From Chloroflexota bacterium (lineage in GTDB: Bacteria > Chloroflexota > UBA6077 > JACCZL01), in assembly GCA_030447245.1 (NCBI GenBank), contig JAUJPG010000004.1, positions 16,843-80,842 of the forward strand: a stretch of 64,000 nucleotides of DNA, written 5' to 3'. Every line of letters starts with the position of its first letter. Within the stretch, counting starts at the first letter, position 1. The notes beneath the pieces are model-generated. The model saw nothing but the letters and a program-made list of their open reading frames with translations, was not told the origin of the DNA and searched no databases. Both the position numbers and the translations under genes were made by a program. This document shows positions 18,187 to 50,203 of this stretch, one piece after another.

Positions 18187-18231
18187 GACGGATACACGGG
18201 CACGGCCCACGCGCTGGCGGACGGCGCGCAT
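18187..18231 (-). pseudogene. short dtd-like N-terminal remnant
   Basis: MRAVRQRVGRARVSV at the start of track ORF 17860..18231 nearly matches the Dtd N-terminus [15 protein letters not shown]; similarity is lost after about 15 residues. Confidence 0.3.
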
Positions 18232-18344
18232 CGGTAGGCGGCCGGTCCGAGCACGTCCGAGGATCTCCCGTCCGCCGAGTCATGCCGCCAGGCACCGCCC
18301 ACCGCGCCCTCAGCGTCAACACGTCGACGGCGCGAACCTGGATG

Positions 18345-18413
18345 CGTTCTAGACACAACAGAGCGGCGATACTGCTCCGATGGGCCGACCAGGACGCGGT
18401 CGCGAGCCGATAG
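18345..18413. repeat. about 70-bp repeat, copy 1 (second copy at 24471..24546)
   Basis: cgttctagacacaacagagcggcg...ggccgaccaggacgcggtcgcgagccgatag versus cgttctagccacaaaagtgccgcggcg...gaccgaccaggacgtggtggcc; both encode ...LRW(A/T)DQD(A/V)VAS. Confidence 0.5.
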
Positions 18414-19468
18414 CATGGGACCGCTACGCCGCTCCCACGACCGGGCGGGTGGCGAACGGCCGTGGAGGGTTGACCGTGAAGAAGCGTGTCGCCGGTCCGC
18501 TCGAAGCCATCACCGCGCACCAAGCCGCACTCCCGCAGGGAGGAGATATGGCCTACGGCGTCGCCTTCCTCTGCGCGGTGATGGCGGTGCGGGATGCCTG
18601 GCTGCGTCACGGTGCGCGGGTGGCCGTTGAGGACCTGGTCGGGCGTGCCCTGCGTGACGGAATGCGCCGCGCGACCGACGGGTCTACCTGGCGGCGTGCG
18701 CCCCGCGAAGCTCAGCCACGGCGGCCGTGGCCCCGTCTCGATCGAGAGGATCGGGACAGGGGACAGGGCGGCCGCCCAGGATGTCGCCGTCGATGCCCCG
18801 GGCGAGAACGCCCCGTCGCGGATGCATGAAGCAGGAGCCGTTCGACGGGCCGAAGACGGCGATGCCGCCTTGCGGGCCGTCGTCAGCGAGGTTGCCGAGC
18901 CGTGTGCGCGTCAGCGCCTCGCACGCGCTTCCCTAAAAGTTGTCGTTGTCGTCATCGTTGTCGTTGTCGCCCCCGTTGTCGCCGTGGTCCTCATTGTCGC
19001 CGTGGTTGTCGTTGTCACCGCCACCACCGCCGCCATTGCCAACTCCTCGGCGCCTCGTACGCACCGATGTCGCAGATCGCCATCGCGTTGCCGTCGCCGT
19101 CGATCGGCCGGGAGACGGCGCGCTGGTGGACCGACTCGAAGATGACCGGGTCGCAGGCGTCGATCGCCACGCTGCCGGCAGCAGCGCGTGGGTCTGGGTC
19201 AGCCCGCCGTTGCTCGCGAGCGGGCCGAGCTTCGGGTCGCCACTCGACACGTCGCCGGTCGCGCTCAGACCGCAGGACGCGTCGGTCGAGAGGTTGTGGC
19301 CGCCCTACTGGTAGCCCGAGATGGCCTCGATGAAGCAGTCGGTCGGGATGCCGCGCCATGCCGTTGGCGAAGATGGTGTTGCGGGGCACCGAGGTGCCCT
19401 GGAGAGCCGCGAGGTTGCCGCCGCGCGTGTCCTCGACGTGGCGGCCAGGGTGGCGTTAGAGAGCACTA

Positions 19469-19482
19469 GTGGGTCAGTTCTC
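19469..19482. repeat. left terminal inverted repeat of the IS630-family element
   Basis: gtgggtcagttctc preceded by TA. Confidence 0.6.
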
Positions 19483-19558
19483 GCGAGGGTTGCCAAACGG
19501 GTGTGTGCCTGGCATGCTCTGGCGTCCGTTCGGTCGAGCGAGCGGACGGAGGTCAGCC

Positions 19559-20572
<1,014 letters not shown>

Positions 20573-20887
20573 TGCCCTTGTACACGCGCTAGGCGGCTCC
20601 TGGCCGAACATGGCCGAGTCCGTCCAGGCGCATCCTCGTCCGGGCGCGCCCTGGATGGCCACCACCCCGAAACTGCCCAGCAGGTCATGGACCGCTGGCC
20701 GCCACCGTCCGGGGGCTGGAACGCGGCCCCAACCCCGTTCGTCTGGGGCGGCCACCGTCGGCAGCGCCGCTGGCGGGCCCGCCGCCGGCGGCCGCTCGCG
20801 TCGAGCCGCACGGCCTCGGCGGCTCCGCGGCACTCACCCGTCGCCCACTCCCTCGTCGCCGCTCAACGTATGAACGGCTCTGCGCAT

Positions 20888-20902
20888 GAGAACTGACCCA
20901 CC
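20888..20902. repeat. right terminal inverted repeat of the IS630-family element
   Basis: gagaactgacccacc followed by TA; reverse complement matches the left TIR. Confidence 0.6.
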
Positions 20903-22049
20903 TAGCGTGCGCCATTGCCCTCGTGGAGGACGCCGTGGCCATACCCGCCCCCAATCCTGCTGCTGAAGACCGCGCGGTTGGTGCTGACCGTCACGTTGGT
21001 GAGCGTGGCGACGCCGTCGGCGACGTTGAGGATCCCGCCGCCGTTCCGGGGCCTGGTTGTTGGCGAGCGTGGCGCGATACAGGGCGAGGTTGCCGAGGTT
21101 CTCGATGCCCCCGCCGCTCCCGACGTTGGTGAGCGCCTCGTTGTCCCTGACGGTGACGTCGCTCAGCGACGCGAGGGCTCCACCCGCGGTTCGTCATCCC
21201 GCCGCCCCAGGCGCCGTCGATGACGACGCGGTTGCCTGAGGACGACGTTCGACAGGTTGACCGTTCCGTGGCTGTGGATGCCCGCCGTGGGCGTAGCCGA
21301 CGAAGCCGAAGCCGGGCCTTGCCATTCGTGACCGTCGCCTCCCTGATCTCGAGGGTCGCGCCCGTATTGACGTCGAAGACGCGGTCGCCGGGTCACGTCG
21401 CCGTTCCCGTCGATGATCGTCTGGGTCCAGCGGCCCCCTCGATGCTGGATGCTGGAGCCGGCGATGACGTCGAGGTCGCCCTTCGCGGCGTTGTTGTCGA
21501 CATCGGCCCGCCGCCGTCGGCGCCGCCGATCCCGAGCAGGTACGTCCCGGCTGGCAGGATGATGACGTCCCGGGCCCGCCAAGGCGTTGGCCTCGATGAT
21601 CGCGCCCCGCAGCGAGCAGTTGCCGGGGACATAGAGCAGGTTGTCAGTGGTGGTCGTCACGGTGAAATCGACCGCGTGGGCGGCCCGGGTCGACGTTGCC
21701 GTCCCGCCGATCGTCAGGGTAACGATGATCGCCAGCGCGGCGGATGTACCTCGCTCGCCTATCTCAGCCTCCCATCCGGTCGCTCGCGCTGCGCGAGCCT
21801 ACCTGTTCGGGATCACCTAGGTGAACATCGGCCTGATGTCTGAGATCTAGACGTGCAGGCGACGTGGTTCTCGTTCATCTCCTCTCCGTCGACGACCGCG
21901 ACCAGCCGCGTGGCCGCCAGCCGACTCCATCGGATACCCTCGTCATGCAACCCCCTTCACGAGCTGAACGACGGCGCCCGCCGCGATTCGGCGCGCACGG
22001 CTCACCAACCTGCGACCAGTCTACCGCGTCATGCCCCCCGGCCCCCATG

Positions 22050-22087
22050 GAAGTACGGGGTTTCCGGGGTTTCAGTACGGGCTTTTC
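22050..22087 (-). repeat. GTAC-containing motif, copy 1 (reverse orientation)
   Basis: aagtacggggtttccggggtttcagtacgggctttt is the reverse complement of the AAAGCCCGTACT / AAACCCCGTACT units seen at 44.8 and 48.9 kb. Confidence 0.7.
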
Positions 22088-22290
22088 GCCCTACTGGATC
22101 GTGGACTGGTGCCAGCAGCACGTCGAGGTGTACCGCTGCGGGGAGGCCCCACAGGGAGGGTCAGCCCCGTGGTAGTCACCGGGCGGGGGGGTGCCGCTCG
22201 TGGCAACGCTCGCGGGCGAGGAGGTGCTGACGACGCCGCTCCTGCCCCATTTCGCCTGCCCCTGCCGAGCCTCTGGGCGCCATCGTCCCG
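22085..22290 (+). pseudogene. Uma2-family endonuclease C-terminal remnant (copy A)
   Basis: YWIVDWCQQHVEVYR and LAGEEVLTTPLLPHFACP match the Uma2 C-terminal consensus; N-terminal two thirds absent. Confidence 0.45.
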
Positions 22291-23339
22291 ACCGCGAGCC
22301 GATCGCCCCCAGGGCTCGACGTCCGCCATGGTCGGGCCGCGGTCGTCGATGGGGAGCGCCCCGCGAGGGCCCGGGCCTCGCTCGACGGCCGCGCGCGGTC
22401 GTCCCCGCCGCCGTCAGCGGAGGCGCAGCCGCTCCACGCCCTGGGCCGGTGGCCGCGTAGAGGTACCGCCCGTCGATCCTCAGCGCCAGGTCGGAGATCA
22501 GGCTCAGGTCCTGGTGCCCCAAGTCGGTCCAGGTGGCCCCGCCGTCGAGGCTGGCCTTCACCCCGCTGCCGATCGGGGTCTCGCCTACACCGCCGCCGCG
22601 CTCGTAGCCGTTGAGGCCGACGTCCCGCTGGCAGGGTGTACGCCAGGTCACCATCTGGACGTTTGGTTCGGCCCCGTCCGCTCGGCTCTGCGAACGCCAG
22701 ATCTCGGTCCAGCTTGACCGTCGGTCGCTACAGGGACGAGCCCCCGCCCTGACCGCGACTGCGCGTCGACCGCGGTGGCTCTGCTCGGCCACGGCAGCAT
22801 CGGGACCCACGTCGCCGCGTCGTCGCGCGGCACCGAGGTCCCGACCTTGGCGGTCGTGTGATCGCTCGGGTCGACCGCCACGCCGACCGCACCCAGCGAC
22901 TGCCGGGGATCAGGCCGCGGTCGCTCAGGCTGACCGCGATCGCGCTGAAGCTCTGCTGCTCCGGCCACGGCAGCATCGGGACCCACGTCACCGCGTCGTC
23001 GCGCGACACCGAGGTCCCGACGTACAGCGTCGTGTGATCGCTCGGGTCGACCGCCACGCCAACCCCACCCCAGCGACGGCCGGGGAATCCGGGCGGGAGG
23101 GCGACCGACGCCCAGGTCACGCCGCCGTCGTCGCTGCGGGACAGCCCGCTCGCCGTCTTCGCGAAGAAGGCACCGCTGGCGGGCGTGAAGAGCTCGGAGG
23201 CGCTCTCGCCGAGCCCGGTCGGCTCCCAGTCCCACGCGGGCGCCTCCTGCGCCCCCAGGCCGCCACCCGTCCCGAGCGTCGCCAGCACTGCCACCAGCGC
23301 GACCGCCCGGCGTGCCATTCCCCAGCCGAGGCCCATCAT
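22100..23339 (-). pseudogene. BNR-repeat (beta-propeller, sialidase/Ycf48-like) secreted protein, frameshifted
   Basis: Signal peptide MMGLGWGMARRAVALVAVLATLG, BNR motifs SRSDDGGVTWAS, SVSRDDAVTWVPM, SLDGGATWTDL spread across three overlapping minus-strand frames. Confidence 0.5.
22781..23085. repeat. about 120-bp imperfect direct repeat inside the BNR pseudogene
   Basis: ctgctcggccacggcagcatcgggacccacgtcgccgcgtcgtcgcgcg... recurs about 170 bp downstream with a few substitutions. Confidence 0.6.
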
Positions 23340-23449
23340 GCCTGTCCCTCCCGGTTTCCGTGGTGCGCACCCCGTCGATCGCGCTTCGGCGCGCACGGGT
23401 CGCCGATCCATGACCACTCTACCGCGTCGGCCTCCCCCCGGTCCCCCGT

Positions 23450-23479
23450 GGAAGTACGGGGTTTCAGTACGGGCTTTTC
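23450..23479 (-). repeat. GTAC-containing motif, copy 2 (reverse orientation)
   Basis: gaagtacggggtttcagtacgggcttttcc. Confidence 0.7.
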
Positions 23480-23482
23480 CCC

Positions 23483-23813
23483 GTGGTTGCCAGCGGCGGG
23501 TACCTGCGTACCGCGCCCAAGCTGGTGGTCGGGGTGCTCTCACCGGGGCGGTGCACGAGCGGCGCGACCGAGAGGAGCAGCTCGCGCTCTGCGGGCGGCA
23601 GGGGGTCCGGGAGCACTGGATCGTGGACTGGCGCCAGCAGCGTCTCGACGTCTATCACCGTGGGCAAGCCCGTCGGGAGGGGCCCGTGGTCGTCACCGCG
23701 CCGAGGCAAGTATGCCGCACGTCGCGACGCTCACCGGCGAGGAGGTGCTGACGACGCCCCTGCTGCCCGAGTTCGCCTGCCCCCTGCCGAGCCTCTGGGC
23801 GCCGTCGTCCTGA
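23483..23813 (+). pseudogene. Uma2-family endonuclease C-terminal remnant (copy B), frameshifted
   Basis: PKLVVGVLSPG, EHWIVDWRQQRLDVYHRG and LTGEEVLTTPLLPEFACPLPSLWA lie in three different frames. Confidence 0.55.
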
Positions 23814-23936
23814 CCGCGGATCCATCGCGCGCTTACCCTTGCTCGGCGGCGGCGCAGGTCACCGCCAGCGCGGCCCTCGCGAGCCGCGTCAGGCTCGTCT
23901 CGGCCTCCGATCGCACAGCGCGCACGGTCCCGTCTG

Positions 23937-24482
23937 TCAGCGGTCCGCGATGACGTAGGTGAACGCCAGCGTGTTGTCAGAGATCTGCGACATGCAGGCG
24001 GCAATGTCGTCGTTCCTGTCCTCGTTTGGGCCGACCAGGATCAGCCCGTGCGCCTCGTCATCGGGGTTGTGGATCATCGGGGGCACCCAGTCGAGGATCT
24101 GGTTGAAGAAGCCGCTCCGGTTCTGGTCCCGCGCGTCGTCCTAGGGGATCGCGTAGGCGGGGTTACCCCTATCCCAGTCGACCGTCGGACGCCTGAGCCG
24201 GAGCCAGCAGGAAATCTGGAACTCGCCGGCGTGAGAGGCCCGCCCGCCGTTCGGTGCTTGCTCGTGGTACAGCACCTCGCGGTAGCGGAGCACCGCCTCG
24301 ACCGGCGGCAGGCTATGGCCGTGCAGGGCGCTGAAGTCGAACTTGAAGGCCAGCTGCCGGTACTCGTGCCAGGTGCAGCCGCTGAAGAAGCCGACCGTCG
24401 ACGGCCTCGCTTGCTGCAACGTCACCCAGCATGACCCGGCGACCGGAGGTCCCCCCGTCATGCTGGGAATCGTTCTAGCCAC
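23937..24482 (-). pseudogene. secreted Cys-containing family-A protein, 5'-truncated copy with internal stop
   Basis: LAFKFDFSALHG...CWLRLRRPTVDW then, after a TAG and a frame change, FNQILDWVPPMIHNPDDEAHGLILVGPNEDRNDDIAACMSQISDNTLAFTYVIADR; closely matches the C-terminal half of 44934..45977. Confidence 0.6.
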
Positions 24483-24546
24483 AAAAGTGCCGCGGCGCTG
24501 ATGCGCTGGACCGACCAGGACGTGGTGGCCTCACCAGGTACAATGT
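24471..24546. repeat. about 70-bp repeat, copy 2 (see 18345..18413)
   Basis: Shared cgttctag...ccgaccaggacg.ggt.gc core. Confidence 0.5.
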
Positions 24547-24642
24547 AGGGGGTCGGGTGCGCGCCTGATCAGCGCCCGTTCAAGCCCGGCGACCACAGAC
24601 GCCGGGGCGCGTCCCTCTTCTGCCTCGCTGTGGCGATGTACG

Positions 24643-25170
24643 ATGCCACTCTCGCGAAATGAGGCCCAACTGCTGGCGAGGGCCGCAAAGGCCGCGGCTG
24701 ATGCGAAACGGCTGGTCGATCCAGCCCTTTCCGTCGCACTCGCCGCTCTCAAGCGGGACAAGGATCTCGGCGGGCAAGCAGCTAGGGTCAGGAACAGGAA
24801 GCGGAACGAGGATGCCTTGGGTGACGTGGGTGTCCTCGCCGAAGCGTTGGCGGAGGGGGGTCCCGTATCGAGCGCCGCCCGGTCCGCTGAGGCTCCGTCG
24901 CCTCCGGAAGCAACTGCCGACGACGGCCCCCGCCGCGATCGCAAGCCGCGCACTGTCGGTTCAGAAGCCAAGAAGCGGGTCCGCCAGCGAGACTTCAGCA
25001 GCCAACTCTTCAGACGCAGGCCGATCGAAGTGATGGACTCGATCCTCGACCTGGGCAAACGCTTGACAAAGTGCGGGGTAGCCGCGGCGATGGGCATACA
25101 CAGAGGGACCCTTGGCTTGTACCTGAGCGACGAGCAGATCGACTGGGATCAGGCGAAGCTCGACGCGTAG
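24643..25170 (+). CDS. hypothetical Ala-rich protein with possible C-terminal helix-turn-helix
   Basis: Open frame with lower GC3 than neighbours; C-terminal ILDLGKRLTKCGVAAAMGIHRGTLGLYL is HTH-like; no family recognised. Confidence 0.35.
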   Translation: MPLSRNEAQLLARAAKAAADAKRLVDPALSVALAALKRDKDLGGQAARVRNRKRNEDALGDVGVLAEALAEGGPVSSAARSAEAPSPPEATADDGPRRDRKPRTVGSEAKKRVRQRDFSSQLFRRRPIEVMDSILDLGKRLTKCGVAAAMGIHRGTLGLYLSDEQIDWDQAKLDA

Positions 25171-25276
25171 GAGAGAAGGGCAAGGCGCCGGGCCCTCGAG
25201 CGGCAGAGACAATCTGAGCGGCGATCCTAACAATCGTCGATCATCGATGGAATCCAGCAAGTTCCGACGTTCTTGA

Positions 25277-25313
25277 GGGGCATCCTGGTCTTGAAGGGAG
25301 ACCAGGATGCCCC
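25277..25313 (+). promoter_or_regulatory. perfect 14-bp inverted repeat with 9-nt loop that encloses the RBS and start codon of the RHH gene
   Basis: ggggcatcctggtc-ttgaaggga-gaccaggatgcccc; GGGAG lies in the loop and ATG 25307 in the 3' arm. Confidence 0.6.
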
Positions 25314-25522
25314 GATTCCTTCTTGAGGTCTCGGACCCCGCCTTTGAACGCCTGACCAAAGAGGCCGGGCGGTATCGGCGGTCGCTCAAGGACCAAGCGG
25401 CGTGGCTCCTCGGGGGCGTGCTGCTGGCCGCCGACGCGCCAGCGCGGGAGCTCGAGAAGATTGGCGCGTCGGCGGGTGTGAGTGCAGCTGACCAGCTAGG
25501 GGCTGGTTATGCCGCGGGGTGA
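25307..25522 (+). CDS. small ribbon-helix-helix-like DNA-binding protein (candidate antitoxin)
   Basis: 71 aa; PRFLLEVSDPAFERLTKEAGRYRRSLKDQAAWLL is consistent with a beta-strand plus two helices as in Arc/CopG/ParD proteins. Confidence 0.45.
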   Translation: MPRFLLEVSDPAFERLTKEAGRYRRSLKDQAAWLLGGVLLAADAPARELEKIGASAGVSAADQLGAGYAAG

Positions 25523-25681
25523 GCATCCACTGCCGCTCACGGTGCGGCGTGAGCTCCTCACGGAACTTTACCGTGTGCTTCTATGCCCCCCGGTCGAGGA
25601 GCAGGATGCGGTAAAGCCGCGTCACCGGGTGGACGACGCGGACCGCACAATTGTGATCCTGGACAGCGGGGCGAGCGAGTA
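25508..25681 (+). CDS. short overlapping ORF downstream of the RHH gene (possible toxin remnant)
   Basis: ATG at about 25508 overlaps the RHH stop; 57 codons, MPRGEHPLPLTVRRELLTELYRVLL...; not in the ORF track because under 60 aa. Confidence 0.2.
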
Positions 25682-26179
25682 GCCGTGTCGAACATCATCG
25701 CTATCCGACGTCCGCTCCACTCCCAGCCCGAAGTCGGTCAGGTCGTGCAGTTTCTCCGCTGTCGGTGCGAACGGCACGTCGTCGTGCTGGAGGGGGCGAG
25801 CGGCTCGATTTGACGACGTGGCGCCACAAGGTCTGGCGAGCGGGCGATCCCTCCCGCGACCGGTACCTGATCTAGATGGGCCCGCCACCCGCATCAGATG
25901 ACGTTGTGGCTAGAACCTCGACGGCGTGGACTCACAGCGCTGGATGTGCACCCATCAGATGCCTCCTCCACGGGGCAAGGGCGTCGGGGGTCTCGGCCGG
26001 GGTTGGCCAGCGCGCTCGCGCCCGCGGCCCACGGGCAAGCCGGGTCAGAGCCTCGGTTCTGTCCTGCCTTCAACCGCTCCAACCGCTGCTCGGCGGGCAG
26101 CGTGGTCCTGCTGCTCCCGCCACCGGCAGGCTATCGTCCCAGCGTCCGCAACGATCTCCGGCGGACGAAAGGAGCCGAC

Positions 26180-37891: not shown

Positions 37892-40402
37892 GTGGATACG
37901 CCCAACAGAGCACCCGCATGGAGCATTGGCCTGGTGATACGCGTGGTGCGTGGTGTTGCCCTGGTAGTTGGCGTCACCGCCTGGGTCGCGTACCTCGGGC
38001 GGCTGCTCCTCCGCGCGCTGCACATGCTTCAGTTGGAGGGGTATCAATCCGCGCGGTTTCTGCACTGGTCGACGAAGAAGGCGGAGCGCTGGGCGCGGAG
38101 TGACCGCGCCGCGCTCGCGGTGGTCGCGGGGGCGATCGGCCTCGCGGGGCGGTCCGCGCCTGGTGGCCGGCCGGCATTCGCCGCCGCGGTCTGGGCCGTG
38201 ATCGGGGCATGGCTGCTGCGAGGGGCGACGTTTGGAGCGGCCAAGAAGCCGCTGGTGCTGACCCCGCGGGCCAGGCGCCTACTGGCCGGCGAGGCGTTCA
38301 TAGCAAGCGTGGCGGCGATCGGGCCGGCCGCGTGGCTTGCGATCCGCGGGCGGCCAGACGCGGGGGCAGGCCTGTGCGTCGGGATCTCCGCGGCCAGCCT
38401 GTTGGTGCCGACAATCGCGGCAGGCGCGAACGTGCTGCTCTGGCCGATCGAAGAGGGGTTCCGGCGCTACTACCTGCGCGATGCGAAACGGCGCCTGCGG
38501 GCGTGCGGACCGACGGTGATCGGCGTCGCGGGCTCGTACGGCAAGACAAGCACCAAGGAGTTCATCGCCGCGATCCTGGGGCGGCAGCGACGGGTGCTCA
38601 AGGCGCCCGGGTCCTACAACACGCCGATGGGGCTATGTCGGGTGATCCGCGAGCACCTAGAGCCGGGCCACGAGCTGTTCGTCGCGGAGCTGGGCGACTG
38701 GGTACCTGGTGACATCCGCTTTCTTTGCGAACTTGTCGACCCGAAGATCGGGGTGCTGACGACGATCGGACCAGAGCACCTCGAGCGATTTAGAACCCTC
38801 GACCGGGTGGTCCAATCCAAGGCCGAGCTGATCGACGCGCTGCCGCCGGACGGGGTCGCCGTCGTCAACCAGGACGACTCGCTGGTCCGTGGGCTCGGCG
38901 AGCGGGCCTCGGCGCGTGGGCTGCGGGTCGTCCGCTACGGCCTGGGCGACGACGCCGACGTCCAGGCCCGCGACGTGCAGACGACGCGTGACGGTCTCCG
39001 GTTCGTGGTGGACGCGCAAGGCCACGGGGTCGCCGAGCTACGGGTCGGTGTCCTCGGACGGCACAACGTGTCCAACCTCCTGGCGGCGGCGGCAGTGGCG
39101 CTCCAACTGGGGATGTCGCTGGAAGACATCGCGGAGGCGGCGTCGACAATCGAGCCGGTCGAGCACCGCTTGCAGCCGATTCGTGGGACTGGTGGAGTGC
39201 TGGTGATCGACGACGCTTTCAATGCCAACCCTCGCGGAGCCGCCGAGGCGCTCGACGTCCTGGCCGAGCTGGGGACCGGCCCTGATGGCGGACGACGCAT
39301 CCTGGTGACGCCGGGGATGATCGAGCTAGCCGAGCGGGAGTGGGACGAGAACAAGGCGTTCGGGCGCAAGGCGGGCGAGGTCTGCGACGTCGTAATTCTG
39401 GTTGGTCCGAAGCGGGCCAGGCCGATCCTCGCGGGCCTCCGCGTGGCAGGCTTTCCGGCGGACCAGACCCACGTCGTACGCAACCTGGCCGAAGCCACGG
39501 AGCGCCTGCAAGGGCTGGTTCGATCAGGCGACGCGGTGCTGTTCGAGAACGACTTGCCGGACACCTACGACGAGAACGGGACGACCGACAGCCTGGCTAT
39601 GCCGCCAACCGAAACTGTCGAGGGCGAACGCCCCACCGGTTCGGTCATCGTGGACGGCCTACGGGTCACCTACCGCGAGGAGGGCGCGGAGACCGGGCGA
39701 ACACCGGTCGTCGTGCTGCACGGATGGGGAGCCAGCAGCGGGGCCGTCGTTTCGATCCAGCGATGCCTCGGAGGCGAGCGGCGGACGGTCGCGCCGGACC
39801 TGCCGGGCTTCGGCGCGAGCGACCTGCCGCCAGAGATCTGGGGCACGGCCGACTACGCCGCGGCCGTGCGCGCATTTCTGCGGGAGGTGAAGATCGAGCG
39901 GGCCAGCTTCGTCGGCCACTCGCGCGGCGGCGGGATCGCGATCTTTCTGGCGGCGACCGCGCCCGAGCTGGTGGACAAGCTGGTGCTCGTCGACAGCGTT
40001 GGCATTCGGGCGCACCGCGGTCCTGGCTATCGCGCTCGCGTGCTGGCATTCAAGGCCGCGCGGCGGGTGGTCGCCAGTCGGTGGACGCGGAGGATCCAGC
40101 CGCTTCAGGAATGGTTCGAACGGCGGTTCGGGTCGGCGGACTACCGCCAGGCGGGCGCGATGCGCGGAACCCTGGTCCGCCTTGTCAACGAAGATCTGCG
40201 GGTGCTGCTGCCGCGAATTCAGGCGCCGACGTTGCTGATCTGGGGCGACCAGGACGAGGACACGCCGATCTCGGACGGCAGACAGATGGAGGAGCAGATC
40301 CCGGATGCAGGACTGGTCGTGTTCCCGGGCGCCGGGCACTTTTCGTACGCGGACGACCCCGGCCGATTCTGCCGCGTCGTCGACCACTTCCTCAAGAACT
40401 GA
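37892..40402 (+). CDS. Mur ligase family protein (MurF-like) with N-terminal membrane segment and C-terminal alpha/beta-hydrolase domain
   Basis: VIGVAGSYGKTSTKE P-loop, GPEHLERF, HNVSNLLAAAAVA, IDDAFNANP Mur-ligase motifs; then a continuous frame into VVVLHGWGAS...FVGHSRGGGIAIFLA...GAGHFS (GxSxG nucleophile elbow and His); N-terminal 200 aa hydrophobic. Confidence 0.65.
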   Translation: MDTPNRAPAWSIGLVIRVVRGVALVVGVTAWVAYLGRLLLRALHMLQLEGYQSARFLHWSTKKAERWARSDRAALAVVAGAIGLAGRSAPGGRPAFAAAVWAVIGAWLLRGATFGAAKKPLVLTPRARRLLAGEAFIASVAAIGPAAWLAIRGRPDAGAGLCVGISAASLLVPTIAAGANVLLWPIEEGFRRYYLRDAKRRLRACGPTVIGVAGSYGKTSTKEFIAAILGRQRRVLKAPGSYNTPMGLCRVIREHLEPGHELFVAELGDWVPGDIRFLCELVDPKIGVLTTIGPEHLERFRTLDRVVQSKAELIDALPPDGVAVVNQDDSLVRGLGERASARGLRVVRYGLGDDADVQARDVQTTRDGLRFVVDAQGHGVAELRVGVLGRHNVSNLLAAAAVALQLGMSLEDIAEAASTIEPVEHRLQPIRGTGGVLVIDDAFNANPRGAAEALDVLAELGTGPDGGRRILVTPGMIELAEREWDENKAFGRKAGEVCDVVILVGPKRARPILAGLRVAGFPADQTHVVRNLAEATERLQGLVRSGDAVLFENDLPDTYDENGTTDSLAMPPTETVEGERPTGSVIVDGLRVTYREEGAETGRTPVVVLHGWGASSGAVVSIQRCLGGERRTVAPDLPGFGASDLPPEIWGTADYAAAVRAFLREVKIERASFVGHSRGGGIAIFLAATAPELVDKLVLVDSVGIRAHRGPGYRARVLAFKAARRVVASRWTRRIQPLQEWFERRFGSADYRQAGAMRGTLVRLVNEDLRVLLPRIQAPTLLIWGDQDEDTPISDGRQMEEQIPDAGLVVFPGAGHFSYADDPGRFCRVVDHFLKN

Positions 40403-41798: not shown

Positions 41799-42205
41799 AT
41801 GTGATGGGACCGTGACCACAGGGTTCTCCCCGCGGCCGCTCGGCAGATGTACACTGCCGCCGTCAGACGCGGCCGAGCCGAATGGTGAGGCCGGGTGACA
41901 GCGGCAGGCCGTTCCTTCGCGAGTCGCCGCTGGTTTTCCGCAGTTGGGGCGGCGGCCAACGCCCCGTTCGTGGTCTGGCCGGGCAGCCCGGGAGGCGCAA
42001 GCTTCTCGGGCTGTTTTCTTGTCCGCCGCCCGGGGCGCTGGCGAGGCTCGGATTGGGACATCCCTCCTGTGACCCCGTACATTTACCGGGTCAGAGCAGA
42101 CAGCGTGGTATAGAGTAGTCTCACGGCAACCGGCCACTGCCGGAGGCGTCCCGCACCCTGCGCAGGGTGCCCCCGGGGCGAGTGGCTGGTGGGGCACAGC
42201 GCCAG

Positions 42206-44542
42206 ATGGGCTCGAACCGACGACGGGACAATCTCCCCGACTTCCAATCGGCCTTCGTTGGTCGCGGGCGGCACCTTGTCGAGGTCGCGCGGCTGCTTCG
42301 GACCGAGCGGCTGGTGACCTTGACCGGGCCGCCCGGTGTGGGCAAGACACGGCTGGCGCTCCGCGTCGCGAGCACGATGAGAAGCCGGTACGCCGACGGC
42401 GTCTGGCTCGTCGAGCTGGCGGCGATCGCCGAACCGGCAATGGTGGCGCACCGAGTAGCGAGGACGCTCGCCGTACTTCCCCGGCCAGGTCGGGCCCTAC
42501 TCGACGAGCTGGCGGCGCTGCTCCAGGATCGGCGCGCTTTGCTGGTGCTCGACAACTGCGAGCATGTCCTGGACGCCTGCGCGAGACTTGCCGATCGCCT
42601 GCTGCGTGCCTGCCCTGAGCTGGCGATCCTGACGACGAGCCGCCAGTCGCTCGGGCTCGCCGGTGAGTGGGCGTGGCTGGTGCCGCCACTGTCGGCGCCA
42701 CCAGTTGGCGGGCTCGGCAACGGCGCGCCGCTGGGCGAGCGCGACGCGATCGAGCGGTATGAGGCCTTCGAGCTCTTCGTAGAGCGCGCCCGGAGAGCCT
42801 CCCCGAGCTTCGCGCTGGACCAAGGCACCGCCGCGGCGGCGGCCCAGATCTGCTGCCGCCTGGATGGACTGCCGCTCGCCATCGAGCTGGCGGCGGCTCG
42901 CACGAGCAACCTGAAGGTCGAGGAGATCGCGGCCCTGCTCGACGACCGCTTCACTCTGCTGACGGCCAGTCCGGACGCAACGCCGACCGGCCAACGGTCG
43001 CTTCGAGCGACCCTGGACTGGAGCCACGATCTGCTGTCAGAGGCGGAGCAGGTCCTGTTCCGACGGCTGGCCGTGTTCGTCGGCGGCTGGACGCTGGAGG
43101 CGGCCGAAGCGGTGTGCGCGATCGACGGCGGATTACCCTCGATCGTCGATCTGATTTCGGGCCTGGTGGACCAGTCGCTGGTGGTGGCAGATGAGCGGGG
43201 TGGCGAATTCCGGTATCGGCTACTGGAGACGCTTCGCGAGTACGGACTGGAGCGGCTGCGCGCGGCGGGCGAAGAGGAGGGCCTGCGCGACGCGCACCTC
43301 GACTGGCTGCTGCGCTTCACCGAGGATGCCGAGCCCGCGCTGCGTGGGGCACAGCAGGCCGACTGGCTGGACCGGCTCGAAGTCGAGCACGACAACCTGC
43401 GGGCGGGACTCGGCTGGTGTCTCGGGCGCGGCTCGGCAGAGTCGGGACTGCGCCTGTGCTGGGCGGTCTGGCGCTTCTGGCTGACCCGCAACCATCCCGC
43501 CGAGGGGCTGGCGTGTCTGGCGCGGGTGCTCGGCCTGGAACGGGCAAAGGCGGAGCCCGCGTTGCACTTCGCTGGACTGTTTGCCGCCGGCCGGCTTGCC
43601 TACGTGGCAGGCGATCCAGAGACCGCGCGTCGGTCGCTCGAGGAGGCGCTCGCGATCGCAAGGGAGCTGGACCACCGAGAGGATATCGCCGGCGCCCTGA
43701 CTCAGCTCGGGCATCTCGCACGCGAGCGGGGCGATTACGCCACCGCGCGACGGCTGTACGAGGAGAGCCTCTGCCTTCGGCAGGAGGCCGGTGATCGGCG
43801 ACTGATCGCGATCTCGCTCGGCAGCCTCGGGCGGGCGGCCTACGGCCAGGGCAACCTGGCCGAGGCGCGGCAGCTAGCCGAAGGGAGCATCCACCTGAGT
43901 CGCACGGCTGGCGACCCGCGCGACCTTGGGACGTTGCTCGTGTTCCTCGGCGACGTTGCCAGTGAGCAAGGCGACCGCGACGCGGCGCGGGCATACTACG
44001 CCGAGGCGTCGGCCATCATCGAGCAGCTCCGAGATCGCCAGCTCCTGGCACAGCTCCTCGAAGGTTTCGCGGCGCTCGCGGCCGACGAGGATCGAGGACA
44101 GCGGGCACTGCGCCTGGCCGGCGCGGCGGCCGGCCTGCGCGAGTCGATCGGTGTCTTGCTCCAGCGTACCGAGCGTCATCGGCTGGAGCGCCGGATCGAT
44201 CCACTCCGCCGAACACTCGGGACGGACCGCTTCATGGCCCTCTGGGCCGAGGGCCGGGCCATGCCGATCGCGGACGCCATCGGCTACGCACTCGACGTGG
44301 ATCAGGTGCCCGATGCCGCGGCGGCCGTCCGGGCCGCCGCGGCCGAGCTGGGCCTGACGCCAAGCGAGCAGCGGATCACGCTGTTGCTCGGGCAAGGATT
44401 CAGCAACCGTCACATCGCCGCGACGCTGGAGGTCTCCGAGCGGACGGTTGAGTGGCACGTGGGCAATCTCCTGGACAAGCTGGGGCTAGCGTCGCGGGTC
44501 CAGGTGGCCGTGTGGGTCGTCGAGCACGGATTGGCGGGCTGA
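42206..44542 (+). CDS. STAND-type ATPase / LuxR-family transcriptional regulator
   Basis: Walker A LTGPPGVGKTRLAL, long TPR-like helical middle region, C-terminal LuxR HTH (LTPSEQRITLLLGQGFSNRHIAATLEVSERTVEWHVGNLLDKLG). Confidence 0.75.
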   Translation: MGSNRRRDNLPDFQSAFVGRGRHLVEVARLLRTERLVTLTGPPGVGKTRLALRVASTMRSRYADGVWLVELAAIAEPAMVAHRVARTLAVLPRPGRALLDELAALLQDRRALLVLDNCEHVLDACARLADRLLRACPELAILTTSRQSLGLAGEWAWLVPPLSAPPVGGLGNGAPLGERDAIERYEAFELFVERARRASPSFALDQGTAAAAAQICCRLDGLPLAIELAAARTSNLKVEEIAALLDDRFTLLTASPDATPTGQRSLRATLDWSHDLLSEAEQVLFRRLAVFVGGWTLEAAEAVCAIDGGLPSIVDLISGLVDQSLVVADERGGEFRYRLLETLREYGLERLRAAGEEEGLRDAHLDWLLRFTEDAEPALRGAQQADWLDRLEVEHDNLRAGLGWCLGRGSAESGLRLCWAVWRFWLTRNHPAEGLACLARVLGLERAKAEPALHFAGLFAAGRLAYVAGDPETARRSLEEALAIARELDHREDIAGALTQLGHLARERGDYATARRLYEESLCLRQEAGDRRLIAISLGSLGRAAYGQGNLAEARQLAEGSIHLSRTAGDPRDLGTLLVFLGDVASEQGDRDAARAYYAEASAIIEQLRDRQLLAQLLEGFAALAADEDRGQRALRLAGAAAGLRESIGVLLQRTERHRLERRIDPLRRTLGTDRFMALWAEGRAMPIADAIGYALDVDQVPDAAAAVRAAAAELGLTPSEQRITLLLGQGFSNRHIAATLEVSERTVEWHVGNLLDKLGLASRVQVAVWVVEHGLAG

Positions 44543-44933: not shown

Positions 44934-45977
44934 GTGAAGCCTACAGGACTCGCTCGAATCGCCCTGACGGCAACGGTCGCGCTCGGCGCCATCTGGAGTG
45001 CGGGCGGCGACGGCGGGCCGAGCACATCGTTCGCCTCGCTCGAGGCGGCGTCGCACCCCGAGGCGGCGCGGCAGGTTGCGACGCCGACGGTACCCGGCCT
45101 ACCTGAGAGCGCTCCGCTGCGCGTCGTCGACACGTTCGACGCCGTCGACAAGGGCGGGCGGGTCGCGCCCGGGCCCCAGGCCATCCCGCCCAACAGGGGT
45201 GACGAGCTCGTCGTGCCGGTCGAGCCCGACGACAACACGGGGTTCACCGACCGGATCAAGCATGACCCGAGCGACCGCATCGAGGACCTGGTCACGACCA
45301 CCGGCCTGTCGGTCATCCCCGAGGCGCTCCGGCCGGGCACGCACCCCTTCCCTGACGAGCCGCCCTTCACGCCGGTCGGGCCGATGGCGAACCCGCACGT
45401 GTGGGGGATGCGCTGGGTAAGCGAGGAACTCGAGGACCGCAGGGGCTATAACGACCCATGCAGGGAAAGCAACTCGACCGACCCGGTGCGCCCGAACTCG
45501 GTCGGCTTTCGCAACGTCAACAAGGTCGACGACCTCTGCAGCCTTAACCCGTTTTACCAGCTGGCTTTCAAGTTCGACTTCAGCACGCTGCGCCAGGCCA
45601 GCTTCCTTCCGATCAGCGCCGCGCTCAAGTTCCACGAAACCGTCTATGAAGAGCGCGATTCAAACGGCAACTATGTTCCCTTCGTCGGATTCCAGAACAC
45701 TTGCTCGCTCCGGCTCGGACGGCCGAATGGGCCCTGGAACGCCCCGCACGTAGGGTACCGAGGGCTCCCGTACACCGACCCACGGGAACAGAACCGGATC
45801 GGCGAGTTCAACGACATTCTGGACTGGGTGGTCACGATGGTTCGGAATCCCGCGGAGGAGGCTAAGGGGCTGATCCTCATCGGCAAGAGCGAGGACCGGA
45901 ACCCCGACAACGCCGCCTGCATGTCCCAGATCTCGAACATCGAGCTCGTGTTCACCTACGTGATCGCGGACCGTTGA
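44934..45977 (+). CDS. secreted Cys-containing hypothetical protein, family A (intact copy)
   Basis: Signal peptide MKPTGLARIALTATVALGAIWSA; conserved LAFKFDFS, CSLRLGRP, ILDWV, GLILIGKSEDRNPDNAACMSQISNIELVFTYVIADR shared with three other copies in the window. Confidence 0.6.
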   Translation: MKPTGLARIALTATVALGAIWSAGGDGGPSTSFASLEAASHPEAARQVATPTVPGLPESAPLRVVDTFDAVDKGGRVAPGPQAIPPNRGDELVVPVEPDDNTGFTDRIKHDPSDRIEDLVTTTGLSVIPEALRPGTHPFPDEPPFTPVGPMANPHVWGMRWVSEELEDRRGYNDPCRESNSTDPVRPNSVGFRNVNKVDDLCSLNPFYQLAFKFDFSTLRQASFLPISAALKFHETVYEERDSNGNYVPFVGFQNTCSLRLGRPNGPWNAPHVGYRGLPYTDPREQNRIGEFNDILDWVVTMVRNPAEEAKGLILIGKSEDRNPDNAACMSQISNIELVFTYVIADR

Positions 45978-46014: not shown

Positions 46015-47376
46015 ATGCGACTGACCACGCTCACCCGGGCCGCGCTTGCGGCGACGATCGTCCTCACGCTCGGCGGGCCGGCTCGTCCGGCACGGGCGGA
46101 CGAGTTCACCGTGACGCGCACCGACGACACCACCACCTGCACCCCCGGCGACTGCTCGCTGCGCGGGGCGATCATCGCCGCCAACACCTCGGCCGGACCG
46201 GACGTGATCTTGCTGCCGGCCGGCCTCTACATCCTGACGATCGGCGGCGCGGACGGCGGCGTCCTGGCCGCCAACGACGCCCAGAAAGGGGACCTCGACA
46301 TCGTCAATGGCTCCAGCATCACCATCGTCGGGGATGGCCCCGATACGACGATCATCGACGGCAATGGCGACATGACCCTCGATCGCGTCTTCGACATCGG
46401 CGCGGGCGGCAGGCTCCAGCTCGGGGGCGCGACGATCATGAACGGCCGCGCCGGAGTCGGCTTCCAGAGCCATGCCCACGGCGCCGGCATCCACAACCAC
46501 GGCTCGCTGATCCTGCAGAACGTCGTCATCAGCGACAACCGCGTCATGCTGACCGGCTGGGGCGGGGGCGGCATCACCAACGCGGACGCGCCCCAGAAGG
46601 CCTCGGCGTCGCTGAACAACGTCACCATCAGGGACAACGAGGCTCTCGAAGACACGGGCGGTGGCGCCATCGAGAACCTGAGCTTCCTGCAGCTCGAGAA
46701 CAGCACGCTGGCCAACAATCGAGCGCGCAATGGCGGCGGGATCGAGAACAAGGGAGTCAACGCCCTGGCCGGCCTGACCAACGTGACGATCAGCGATAAC
46801 CGCGCGGTCTCCAACGGGACCCCGACCACCGGCTTCGGCGGCGGTATCTCCAACCGAGACGGCGCGACCCTCTCCATGACCCACGTGACGCTGGCCGGCA
46901 ACAGCGCGGACACCCGCGGGGGTAACCTGGCGGCGCTGGACAAGGGCAAGTCCGTGACGCCCATCAACACGATCTTCGCCGACGGCAGCCCTGCCGATTG
47001 CTTCATCGAGGCGACCGGCGGCTACGTCTCCAACGGCACCAATCTCGCGACCGACGCCAACTGCAACCTGGCCGGCGCGGGCGACCGGCCGGGCGGCCAG
47101 GTGCAGCTCGGACCGTTGGCGGACAACGGCGGCCTGACCCCGACCCGCGCGCTGCTGCCGGCATTCCCTGACCACGGCAACGAAGCGATCGACGCCTGCA
47201 ACCCGGCGTCGTCGACGGACGCCGACCAGCGCGGCGAGCCCCGTCCCAGGGACGGCGACGGCGACGGCACGGCGATCTGTGACATGGGCGCCTACGAGAT
47301 GCAGCGCGCCGAACGCGGGCATGACAACGACAACGAGAACCACGACAACGACAACCATGACAACGACAACGACTAG
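46015..47376 (+). CDS. CSLREA-domain right-handed beta-helix surface protein (choice-of-anchor-type C-terminal region) with Asp/Asn-rich tail
   Basis: Signal peptide, CSLRGAIIAAN motif, repeated N.T....N beta-helix rungs, C-terminal DNGGLTPTRALLP...AIDACNP...DGDGDGTAICDMGAYE, tail HDNDNENHDNDNHDNDND. Confidence 0.7.
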   Translation: MRLTTLTRAALAATIVLTLGGPARPARADEFTVTRTDDTTTCTPGDCSLRGAIIAANTSAGPDVILLPAGLYILTIGGADGGVLAANDAQKGDLDIVNGSSITIVGDGPDTTIIDGNGDMTLDRVFDIGAGGRLQLGGATIMNGRAGVGFQSHAHGAGIHNHGSLILQNVVISDNRVMLTGWGGGGITNADAPQKASASLNNVTIRDNEALEDTGGGAIENLSFLQLENSTLANNRARNGGGIENKGVNALAGLTNVTISDNRAVSNGTPTTGFGGGISNRDGATLSMTHVTLAGNSADTRGGNLAALDKGKSVTPINTIFADGSPADCFIEATGGYVSNGTNLATDANCNLAGAGDRPGGQVQLGPLADNGGLTPTRALLPAFPDHGNEAIDACNPASSTDADQRGEPRPRDGDGDGTAICDMGAYEMQRAERGHDNDNENHDNDNHDNDND

Positions 47377-47423
47377 AGACCTCCTGCCGAGCGTCGGCCG
47401 GGGTAAGCGGGAGGCACACGCTG

Positions 47424-48197
47424 ATGGAGACCGAACATTCGATTGTGGCGCCAGGGCATGGGCGCGACCGATCGCGGTGGCTGCGCTGGACGGCGCTGCT
47501 GGGCCTGGTGGTCGCGCTGACCAGTCTGCCGGGCGTCGGCCTGGCGGATGACGACGAGAACAAGAAGAAGGACAAGCAGACCGCGAGCCTGCGAGAGTCC
47601 AGCCAACAGCAGACGATCGGACCAATCGACGACGCCGATCGGATCAGGATCCCTGACCTGACCGAGAAGCCGGGCCTGCCGCCGGACACGGTCGCCACCC
47701 CGGTCGACAACTTTGACGATCGGGTCAGGATCCCTGACCTGACCGAGAAGTCAGGTCTGCCGCCGGACACGGTCGCCACACCGATCGACCACGACCGGGT
47801 CGAGCAGATCGGCCAGCTGGTCGGCGAGAACACCTGGACGGACCGGGCCCCGATGCCCACCTCGCGCTTCGGGCTTGGGCTGGCGGCGGCGCAAAACGGG
47901 AAGCTCTACGCCGTCGGCGGCTACAACAACGGCGGCGCGCAGGCCACGGTCGAGGAGTACGACCCGGACCTCAACACCTGGAGGGCTCGGGTCCCGCTGC
48001 CCACCCCGCGCTCCGGGCTCGGGCTGGCGGTGGCGTCCAACGGCAGGCTCTACGCCGTCGGCGGCAACAACGGCAGCGCCTTTCTGGCCACGGTCGAGGA
48101 GTACGACCCGGCCACCAACACCTGGACGGCCCGGGCCCCACTGCCCACCGCGCGCTACGCGCTCGGGCTGGCGGCGGCGCAACCCTGCAAGCTCTAG
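47424..48197 (+). CDS. Kelch-repeat protein, truncated by an in-frame stop
   Basis: Signal/TM segment, two 27-aa tandem repeats RIPDLTEK.GLPPDTVATP, then Kelch blades (GKLYAVGG...EEYDP.TNTW); TAG at 48195 replaces the Tyr of the next LYAVGG. Confidence 0.6.
   Translation: METEHSIVAPGHGRDRSRWLRWTALLGLVVALTSLPGVGLADDDENKKKDKQTASLRESSQQQTIGPIDDADRIRIPDLTEKPGLPPDTVATPVDNFDDRVRIPDLTEKSGLPPDTVATPIDHDRVEQIGQLVGENTWTDRAPMPTSRFGLGLAAAQNGKLYAVGGYNNGGAQATVEEYDPDLNTWRARVPLPTPRSGLGLAVASNGRLYAVGGNNGSAFLATVEEYDPATNTWTARAPLPTARYALGLAAAQPCKL
47640..47795. repeat. near-identical tandem repeat (2 x about 78 bp) inside the Kelch gene
   Basis: cggatcaggatccctgacctgaccgagaag... repeated with a few substitutions. 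Confidence 0.7.
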
Positions 48198-48410
48198 GCC
48201 GTCGGCGGCGACATCGGCGGCGCGCAGGCCACGGTCGAGGAGTACGACCCGGCCACCAACACCTGGACGGCCCGGGCCCCGCTGCCCACCCCCCGCTCCA
48301 GCCTCGGGCTGGCGGCGGCGCCCAACGGCAAGCTGTACGCCGTCGGCCATCGGCGGCGCGCAGGCCACCATCGAGTACGACCCGAACGCCGACACCCTGG
48401 ACCGCTGAAC
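48198..48410 (+). pseudogene. degenerate continuation of the Kelch repeats after the premature stop
   Basis: AVGGDIGGAQATVEEYDPATNTWTARAPLPTPRSSLGLAAAPNGKLYAVG then frame loss. Confidence 0.5.
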
Positions 48411-48529
48411 GCCCGCGCCGCTCGCTGCTGTTCAATCGAGCCCGCCTCGCCCATGACCCAGACCTGGCCAAGCAGCAGGGCGCCGTCCCACCCTGGTCGT
48501 TCCCGCTGTACGCAGGATGAGCGAGCACG

Positions 48530-48875
48530 GTGCGCTCGTCAGCGATCTCGACCATGACCCAGACCCGGACCTTCCGCTCACGGGCGATGATCCGTTACCC
48601 GACCGGCAACGGGGCCGTCAGGATCAGGACTGTCGGCGACGGCGAGCTGACCCAGAATGGGTTCGGCTCGCCAGCGAAGTCGACAGGAGGGCAAGCCGCG
48701 CAACGCGGTGCCCGACTCTCGCACTCGGTGCCCGCCTTCCGCGTCAACCGGATGATCCGCTACTGATGCCAACAATGGCGTCCTGCTGCGCGGCTCCGAC
48801 GAGACGCTTTGGACCCAGGACAGCGCGTGCGTCTCCAACATCAGGCTCTCGTTCACCTACGAGATCTCCGATTAG
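48530..48875 (+). pseudogene. family-A C-terminal remnant
   Basis: Ends ...DSACVSNIRLSFTYEISD, matching the AACMSQISNIELVFTYVIAD C-terminus; upstream part degenerate with internal duplications. Confidence 0.5.
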
Positions 48876-48912: not shown

Positions 48913-48947
48913 AAAACCCCGTACTAAAAGCCCGTACTAGTACGGGG
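48913..48947 (+). repeat. GTAC-containing motif, copy 4, ending in palindrome CCCGTACTAGTACGGG
   Basis: aaaaccccgtactaaaagcccgtactagtacgggg, between the family-A remnant and the CARDB-like gene. Confidence 0.7.
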
Positions 48948-49048
48948 ACGCCGGAGCGCGGTGCCGTATCGTGGTCCCAGGGCACCGCGGGTGCGCGCCG
49001 AACGGGTGCGCGGTCGCCTCGCACCGCGGTTCGGGGGAGGATCTGAGG

Positions 49049-49480
49049 ATGACGCGATCTCCGTGGCAGCGGCGGCTGCTCTCGGCGCTGCTGGCCGCCA
49101 GCGTCGTGGCAGCGGGACTGCCCGGCGAGAGCTGGGCGCAGGCCCGACCGGACCTGGAGCTAACCTACGGCGGCTTATTGCCCGACAAGCTCCGACTCGT
49201 CAAGTTCACGGTCAAGAACGTCGGCACTGCGCCCTCGTCAGCGACCAATAAGGTCGGGGTGATTACCTCCGAGCCCGAGCCGACGCCGTCGTTCCAAGGG
49301 CTCGACCTGCCGCCCCTCAAGCCGGGAGAGAGCAAGGACGTGTTCTACACCCTTGCCGCCGACTGCAACGGGCACGTCGTCCAGGCGCTGGTCAACGACC
49401 CGCTTGACCTGAACACAGCGAACAACGCTGTCGAGGACAAGCAGGGTCTGCTCGGGCGCACCGGTCGCCACGTCGCCTGA
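49049..49480 (+). CDS. small secreted CARDB-like (Ig-fold) protein
   Basis: Signal peptide MTRSPWQRRLLSALLAASVVAAGLPGESWA after a GGGGGAGGA RBS; LVKFTVKNVGTAPS...ANNAVED resembles a CARDB domain. Confidence 0.5.
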   Translation: MTRSPWQRRLLSALLAASVVAAGLPGESWAQARPDLELTYGGLLPDKLRLVKFTVKNVGTAPSSATNKVGVITSEPEPTPSFQGLDLPPLKPGESKDVFYTLAADCNGHVVQALVNDPLDLNTANNAVEDKQGLLGRTGRHVA

Positions 49481-49510: not shown

Positions 49511-50203
49511 GTGCGCCACCTGCAACGTGCCGGGCGGAGTTTCGACCCGGGCCTGCACACGCTGTCCCTCCGCCGGGCGGCCTTCAAGACGCTGAGACGC
49601 CACAGGGTCGAGGGCGATTGCTACATCGGGCACGAAATCGTCGACGAGGCGCAGAACCCGCCCTTTCCACTCATGGGCGGCACCGGAATATCAGTTCTGA
49701 GAGCCCCGATCTTAACTCGTGACTGTCAGACTAATGGTGTCTGGCACGCGGCGTTCAGGTTCAACCTGTCCGAAATCCGGGGGCGGTGGGCGGCCGGGCG
49801 GTTGTCCGTGCTCACCATGGAGCTGACATTCGAAGAGACTCCGTACCTCTCGTCCCTCGACGGCATCACTGGCAAGAGGGAGTTCATGATTAACCTCTGG
49901 CGTCCGCCCACCTTCGACTTTAGTCAGCACGCGCCGACCGAGACCTGCTGGCCGCGGCTGGCCCGTCCGACGGTCGACTGGAGCCGCACGGGCATCGTGG
50001 TCCCGAACGACGTCCTCCTTGAGGCGGGACAGATCGGCACCTTCCCGCTGCTGCATCAGATCGGCGATATGCTGCGCTACCCGGAGAACGACGGGCTCGG
50101 ATTCCTGATCCTCGGCCACAACGAGGAGATGCACTTCAACGACGCGGAGTGCGTCTCGAAGATCGACAACGTCACACTCAACGTGACCTACCACGTCCAC
50201 TAA
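49511..50203 (+). CDS. family-A paralogue (divergent, no obvious signal peptide in the called frame)
   Basis: AFRFNLSEIRG, ETCWPRLARPTVDWSRTG, GFLILGHNEEMHFNDAECVSKIDNVTLNVTYHVH align with the other family-A copies; may be fused to or frameshifted from the upstream CARDB ORF. Confidence 0.55.
   Translation: MRHLQRAGRSFDPGLHTLSLRRAAFKTLRRHRVEGDCYIGHEIVDEAQNPPFPLMGGTGISVLRAPILTRDCQTNGVWHAAFRFNLSEIRGRWAAGRLSVLTMELTFEETPYLSSLDGITGKREFMINLWRPPTFDFSQHAPTETCWPRLARPTVDWSRTGIVVPNDVLLEAGQIGTFPLLHQIGDMLRYPENDGLGFLILGHNEEMHFNDAECVSKIDNVTLNVTYHVH

Follow-up and report, generated by a model that had tools for sequence, protein, structure and literature searches.

A probably decaying pseudogene of a recently amplified Kelch propeller in a Chloroflexota bacterium

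The window analysed in this study, which is the whole stretch of 64,000 nucleotides from one contig of a Chloroflexota bacterium, contains the remnant of a Kelch-repeat gene. The remnant sits in a same-strand gene cluster, several members of which are predicted secreted proteins. Its surroundings are as follows.

42167..44542, same strand as the Kelch remnant: LuxR/TPR regulator
44934..45977, same strand as the Kelch remnant: member of an unnamed family
46015..47376, same strand as the Kelch remnant: CSLREA/choice-of-anchor-Q beta-helix protein
48409..48764, no strand assigned: decayed spacer without coding signal (codon-usage track)
48765..48875, plus strand: C-terminal fragment of an unnamed-family paralogue, 36 aa and stop (hmmsearch with a three-paralogue profile, E = 1.3e-5; tblastn E = 0.028)
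48971..49480, same strand as the Kelch remnant: CARDB protein
49511..50203, same strand as the Kelch remnant: second unnamed-family member
after 49511..50203, same strand as the Kelch remnant: M48 protease, then LemA protein

The unnamed family, which has no Pfam or NCBIfam match, occurs in the window twice intact, once as a pseudogene, and once as a fragment; its C-terminal motif reads roughly GLIL.G..ED.....AAC(M/V)S(Q/K)I.N..L.FTY.I. The fragment lies between the Kelch remnant and the CARDB gene, with its coding part at 48765-48872 and its stop codon at 48873-48875. Upstream of it, the stretch at ~48560-48625 (AMIRYPTGNG...) weakly resembles the same family, at a level that is not significant (hmmsearch E ~1). 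Between the fragment and the CARDB gene lies a perfect 16-nt palindrome, CCCGTACTAGTACGGG (48931-48946), which is terminator-like on the minus strand; such scores are no commoner than in shuffled sequence. Promoter and terminator scans likewise gave matches no more frequently than in shuffled sequence, and Rfam and tRNA scans of the window returned nothing. Elsewhere in the window, in an 836-aa ORF (37892-40402) of unusual architecture, an alpha/beta-hydrolase domain is joined to the middle and C-terminal domains of a Mur ligase; this ORF adjoins a D-Ala-D-Ala ligase gene.

A second cluster, paralogous to the one at 44.9-50.2 kb, occupies 18000-26000 on the minus strand. It has decayed: about 8 kb are without a coherent coding frame. 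Three segments are still recognizable.

21747..20929, 19604..18954, and 24407..23940, minus strand: segments of the decayed cluster

This cluster includes frameshift-riddled choice-of-anchor-Q copies with 36-39% amino-acid identity to the gene at 46015..47376, as well as an unnamed-family pseudogene (24407..23940, minus strand) with 50% identity to the gene at 44934..45977 and an in-frame TAG at 24143-24141, at a Tyr position. The intact choice-of-anchor-Q protein ends in a HDNDNENHDNDNHDNDND tail encoded by a GACAAC-type hexanucleotide repeat (47323-47373), and a similar tail, DNDNHGDNEDHGDN, is retained in a pseudogene copy at ~18954-19010 on the minus strand.

The features of the Kelch gene itself are listed in order of position.

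47410..47414, plus strand: GGAGG, a Shine-Dalgarno-like motif (putative function; read from the sequence), 9 nt upstream of the ATG
47424..48197, plus strand: surviving ORF of 257 aa (ORF list), with signal peptide, linker, and ~2.5 Kelch blades, ending at a premature TAG
47424..47546, plus strand: probable Sec signal peptide or membrane anchor, residues 1-41 (from the translation)
47636..47797, plus strand: two tandem 81-nt units in the linker, 91% identical (Tandem Repeats Finder and repeat finder)
47829..47972, plus strand: Kelch unit 1, 144 nt, intact (nhmmer E = 1e-44)
47973..48116, plus strand: Kelch unit 2, 144 nt, intact (alignment, nhmmer)
48117..48257, plus strand: Kelch unit 3, 141 nt, one codon short, holding the TAG and an Asn-Gly to Pro-Cys replacement (alignment, nhmmer, blade-column comparison)
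48195..48197, plus strand: premature TAG at a near-invariant Tyr codon, TAC in units 1, 2, and 4; Tyr in 97% of family blades
48258..48393, plus strand: Kelch unit 4, 136 nt, with a 5-nt deletion, a lost GAG codon, and a Val to Ile replacement (alignment, nhmmer, blade-column comparison)
48394..48408, plus strand: vestige of a fifth unit, GACACC(C)TGGACCGC, then TGA in a shifted frame; end of the array (read from the sequence and translation)

The surviving ORF still has a good ribosome-binding site, and its expression may continue. Residues 1-41 of its translation consist of an Arg-rich n-region, the hydrophobic stretch WTALLGLVVALTSLPGVGLA, and then DDDE; a helix at residues 17-33 appears in a single-sequence AlphaFold2 model of the 257-aa product, whose confidence is low (pLDDT 48.8). 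A low-complexity stretch, both acidic and basic, follows the putative signal peptide and leads to the two 81-nt linker units, which encode the 27-aa repeat DR(I/V)RIPDLTEK(P/S)GLPPDTVATP(V/I)D. This linker duplication (47636-47797) is a second young internal duplication within the gene. No homologue of the 27-aa repeat was detected in the protein database, the GTDB representative genomes, or the JGI metagenome contigs, and in these collections nothing else matched the N-terminal 135 residues. A search of 5.8 billion proteins found a single full match, the identical 257-aa entry from NCBI (P0001); all other matches covered the Kelch part only, at 36-67% identity. The same three collections yielded no close orthologue or intact allele of the gene. 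The best named matches of the Kelch part, like those of the neighbouring M48 protease, are Chloroflexota MAGs, and the source lineage has probably been little sampled; identity is 49-62% to Chloroflexota genomic loci and at most 67% to Chloroflexota homologues. The closest usable relative of the M48 protease (53% identity, Chloroflexota MAG) lies 240 nt from a contig end and shares no neighbours with the window.

A preliminary description of this DNA had recognized a Kelch-repeat gene with a premature stop, and this identification holds. The 257-aa ORF (47424..48197) matched Pfam PF01344 Kelch_1 with E = 7e-25 and 86.6 bits, above the gathering cut-off of 20.1, and the frame-repaired Kelch sequence scored 129.5 bits against the same model. 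Assignment to the N-acetylneuraminate mutarotase NanM/YjhT was rejected, as NF010730 gave 22.1 bits against a cut-off of 416 and TIGR03547 gave 18.6 against 256. At the DNA level, a tandem array of 141-144-nt units spans 47829-48393. Tandem Repeats Finder reported a period of 144 nt at 47829-48375 (3.9 copies, 82% matches, score 732), and an nhmmer profile of the units found exactly four copies, with E = 1e-33 to 1e-44 each. Neither a fifth nor a degenerate further blade was found by nhmmer downstream of unit 4 in a search extended to 49100, and the rest of the window contains no other Kelch sequence and no donor Kelch copy. Pairwise nucleotide identity among the units is 82-88%, in line with the 82% matches above; the units are thus similar rather than near-identical, as they had been called. 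The longest exact stretch common to units is 54 nt (48086-48139 = 48227-48280), and another spans 38 nt.

The recent tandem expansion proposed in the preliminary description is supported by synonymous sites, not by raw identity. Among 188 positions at which a pair of units agrees in the residue, 171 (91%) also agree in the codon, against 45% predicted from codon usage. Nei-Gojobori estimates between units give dS of 0.07-0.19 and dN/dS of 0.7-2.9, with pooled pS of 0.117 and pN of 0.168. Of 79 homologous Kelch genes taken from other genomes, 78 have a higher between-blade dS, and most show dS > 0.5 and dN/dS of 0.1-0.5 in the same computation; ranked among these 79, the gene studied here would come second in blade youth. 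The sole comparable gene (L027) is an intact six-blade gene from Bacteroidia, with dS of 0.12 and dN/dS of 1.29. That gene, whose ORF starts at position 1231 of its locus (MAG contig BPGX01000023.1), has 94% identical codons and blades that are even younger, and is a candidate for a freshly amplified, still-functional propeller. A dN/dS of about 1 or more was rejected as proof of decay, because this intact young-bladed gene shows such a value. At the protein level, identity among the query blades is 0.70-0.80 (mean 0.74) and identity to foreign blades is 0.70-0.77; the blades are as near to foreign blades as to one another because the whole family is consensus-like. The low synonymous divergence therefore indicates that the blades are unusually young at the DNA level. 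Recent amplification of the blades is supported; intragenic gene conversion would leave an identical signal.

The premature stop lies where it had been described, at codon 48195-48197 in the third blade, in the motif KLY|AVGG (K-L-Y-A-V-G-G); the changed base is 48197. The downstream blades had been said to lose frame, which is accurate only from 48347/48348 onward: the original frame persists past the TAG, to the end of unit 3 and for another 30 codons into unit 4. Unit 4 is then without 5 nt (GGCGA) at 48347/48348 in comparison with unit 3, and without 8 nt in comparison with units 1-2, and the remainder of this unit (IGGAQATIEYDPNAD) reads in the +1 frame. Blade-coding sequence is thus still recognizable beyond both the in-frame TAG and the frameshift. 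Several lesions come in addition to those first described, namely the codon loss and the Asn-Gly to Pro-Cys replacement in unit 3, the loss of GAG in unit 4, and the end of the array, where a TGA at 48406-48408 follows only ~15 nt similar to the beginning of a fifth unit. Column-by-column comparison with 652 family blades placed several of these changes at conserved positions. The Pro and Cys of unit 3 each have a frequency of 0.00 in columns that are otherwise Asn (70%) and Gly (87%); the Ile of unit 4 occurs in 1% of family blades, at a column with 78% Val; and the Glu lost from unit 4 belongs to an 89% conserved column. Units 1-2 are nearly clean by this comparison. With codon usage trained on the long ORFs of the window, the coding score is high on either side of the TAG (0.35 and 0.26) and falls to about zero across 48.3-49.05 kb.

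These lesions bear on the suggestion, also made earlier, of repeat-mediated switching, in which recombination between blade units would toggle the gene or vary the surface as phase or antigenic variation. The gene is located in a secreted-protein gene cluster, its between-blade dN/dS is 1 or more, and the 54-nt exact repeats flank the TAG-bearing unit, so that a deletion between them would excise the stop in frame. However, such recombination would leave a three-blade array and would repair neither the frameshift at 48348 nor the loss of blades. The stop is a point substitution and not a change in repeat number, residues in units 3-4 violate family-invariant positions, and the downstream DNA is non-coding. 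Moreover, neither a simple-sequence tract nor an invertible segment is present at the locus, and the window contains no silent donor Kelch cassette, features that would be expected of a contingency locus. Switching is therefore regarded as extremely improbable.

Segmentation with blade profiles counted six blades in 107 of 119 homologous proteins, five in 8, and four in 1; the frame-repaired query gave four by the same procedure. The closest solved structures, namely the designed SAKe6 proteins together with KLHL20, KLHL2, and KEAP1, are all six-bladed Kelch propellers. The top PDB sequence match is the computationally designed symmetric SAKe6 (E = 1e-76), ahead of every natural protein, which shows the consensus-like character of the blades. 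Because most of the homologues and all of these structures have six blades and the array has four units, at least two blades are absent even after the stop and the frameshift have been repaired. The ancestral state was presumably six-bladed, judging from distant homologues of at most 67% identity that align with the Kelch part only. A closed six-blade Kelch propeller is not encoded here, as there are four units after repair and ~2.5 in the ORF. The 257-aa product with ~2.5 blades is the only one that can still be made, and it cannot close a propeller.

Oligomeric propellers assembled from fragments are known. The possibility that propellers oligomerize from fragments has also been discussed for highly repetitive propellers (PMC9218822). 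A functional product might persist despite the stop, either through read-through or recoding of the TAG or because the 257-aa fragment of ~2.5 blades works alone or as an oligomer. The ORF has kept the Shine-Dalgarno motif and the signal peptide, the coding score is high before and after the TAG, and the two further in-frame pseudogene stops in the window are also TAG. Against this, a ribosome reading through the TAG would run into the frameshift and blades would still be missing, the break falls inside strand 2 of a blade and leaves a non-integral fragment, and the AlphaFold2 model mentioned above is of low confidence. In addition, TAG terminates 11 of the 33 long ORFs in the window. This reading is considered very unlikely. 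Recoding of TAG in particular was rejected, since TAG is a normal terminator here and credible in-frame stops with coding signal on their flanks are found only in the Kelch gene and another pseudogene. The three pseudogene in-frame stops (48195-48197, 24143-24141, and 19307-19305) are all TAG, two of them at Tyr codons; they are most simply explained as the nonsense codon to be expected from GC-rich codon usage, rather than by recoding.

An assembly or consensus artefact was also considered, in which the true gene is an intact six-blade Kelch gene and the stop, the indels, and the short array stem from mis-assembly or poor polishing of a repeat in a MAG. Exact stretches of 38-54 nt common to the units can confuse short-read assemblers and classically lead to repeat collapse; the sequence comes from one contig of an apparently uncultured lineage, and no second copy of the sequence is present in the collections searched. 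Collapse, however, joins units in register, and leaves unexplained the nonsense substitution, the 5-nt deletion, and the Asn-Gly to Pro-Cys replacement, as well as the passage of the array into decayed DNA of unrelated sequence. Long uninterrupted genes take up about 50 kb of the window, so error rates are not generally high, and the lesions are concentrated in two specific surface-protein clusters. The genes for BipA, the Mur ligase fusion, Ddl, a molybdenum hydroxylase, an ABC-F ATPase, and hydantoinases are all long and uninterrupted. The lesions are therefore local, and general assembly noise is unlikely. An artefact is thus considered improbable, and the lesions are likely to be present in the organism rather than in the assembly alone.

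The locus is probably a genuine pseudogene, that is, a recently amplified secreted six-bladed Kelch propeller gene that has since been inactivated and is now decaying. Ongoing decay, as the preliminary description had proposed, is well supported by at least five independent lesions, two missing blades, residues absent from all family blades compared, the disappearance of coding signal downstream, and the adjacent gene fragment. The original protein would have been secreted or surface-anchored, and in it a signal peptide preceded a disordered linker with internal repeats and a Kelch beta-propeller of six blades. Its propeller array may have been built or homogenized recently at the DNA level, through gene conversion or the tandem amplification of a single 144-nt unit. 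Loss of function and neutral decay would then have followed. The lesions may have arisen in this order: a nonsense mutation turned the invariant Tyr codon of unit 3 from TAC into TAG, conserved positions in units 3 and 4 received non-conservative residues, two single codons were deleted, unit 4 lost 5 nt and with them its frame, and finally everything beyond the start of unit 5 was deleted. This last event probably also took the 5' portion of the adjacent gene, leaving its last 36 codons; most simply, a single deletion would have removed the 3' portion of the Kelch gene together with the 5' portion of its neighbour.

A bolder interpretation is that the birth and death of a propeller has been caught in the act. 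In such a scenario, a single blade would have been amplified within the lineage (dS ~0.1), its loops would have come under positive selection (dN/dS > 1), and the gene, as one of a set of rapidly turning-over secreted recognition proteins, would then have been discarded; the decayed cluster at 18-26 kb would be a product of this same arms-race-like turnover. This more elaborate account is speculative and unlikely. In a still bolder variant, the cell would continue to use the four-unit array or the 257-aa fragment. The plain reading of the locus as a decaying pseudogene has a practical consequence for annotation, as the deposited 257-aa 'protein' would be a pseudogene stump and neither a functional Kelch protein nor a NanM mutarotase. 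The synonymous-site numbers date the Kelch amplification as recent, and the genome carries clusters of decaying secreted-protein paralogues. The locus opens no new question; it adds one more dissected Kelch case of propellers that are amplified from single blades and of which many soon decay.

Several known systems resemble the locus. Bacterial six-bladed Kelch proteins, often auto-annotated as 'N-acetylneuraminic acid mutarotase' (COG3055-type), have the same blade motif, W..R..PMPT.R...G.A...GKLYA.GG...ATVEEYDP, whereas the query is interrupted and has four units rather than six. Contingency (phase-variable) loci are likewise repeat-containing surface-protein genes with an inactivating lesion; unlike these, the query is without a simple-sequence repeat, its lesion is irreversible, and several independent lesions are present. 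Ordinary bacterial pseudogenes in paralogous surface-protein clusters share with the query the combination of nonsense change, frameshift, and truncation, and here a decayed sister cluster lies at 18-26 kb, but the query differs from them in carrying an unusually young internal repeat array while decaying.

The closest parallel is found among globally highly repetitive beta-propellers, which have a median blade identity above 60% (Pereira and Lupas 2022, PMC9218822); that study describes them from all lineages, the Kelch superfamily among them, and cites earlier work by Chaudhuri et al. 2008 and Dunin-Horkawicz et al. 2014. The phyla in its dataset include Chloroflexi, and many of its propellers are broken by frameshifts and in-frame stops (PMC9218822). 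The query belongs to this class by its median blade identity of ~0.74 over consecutive blades, which exceeds the 60% threshold, by the low synonymous divergence that marks recent amplification of its blades, by its Kelch superfamily membership, and by its origin in Chloroflexota. As in the disrupted propellers of that study, its blade-coding sequence runs past an in-frame stop and into another frame. Unlike in those propellers, the distal blades of the query have been deleted outright instead of being displaced into another frame, the array adjoins a fragment of an unrelated gene, and the N-terminal region is an orphan. Nearly a twin of the query locus is the Verrucomicrobia protein PYL67592.1, in which four Kelch-like blades of 76% identity are followed by a fifth-blade deletion, a frameshift, and a stop (PMC9218822). 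In sum, this birth and death of bacterial propeller genes is of a known kind, and the Chloroflexota locus is another instance of the disrupted highly repetitive class.
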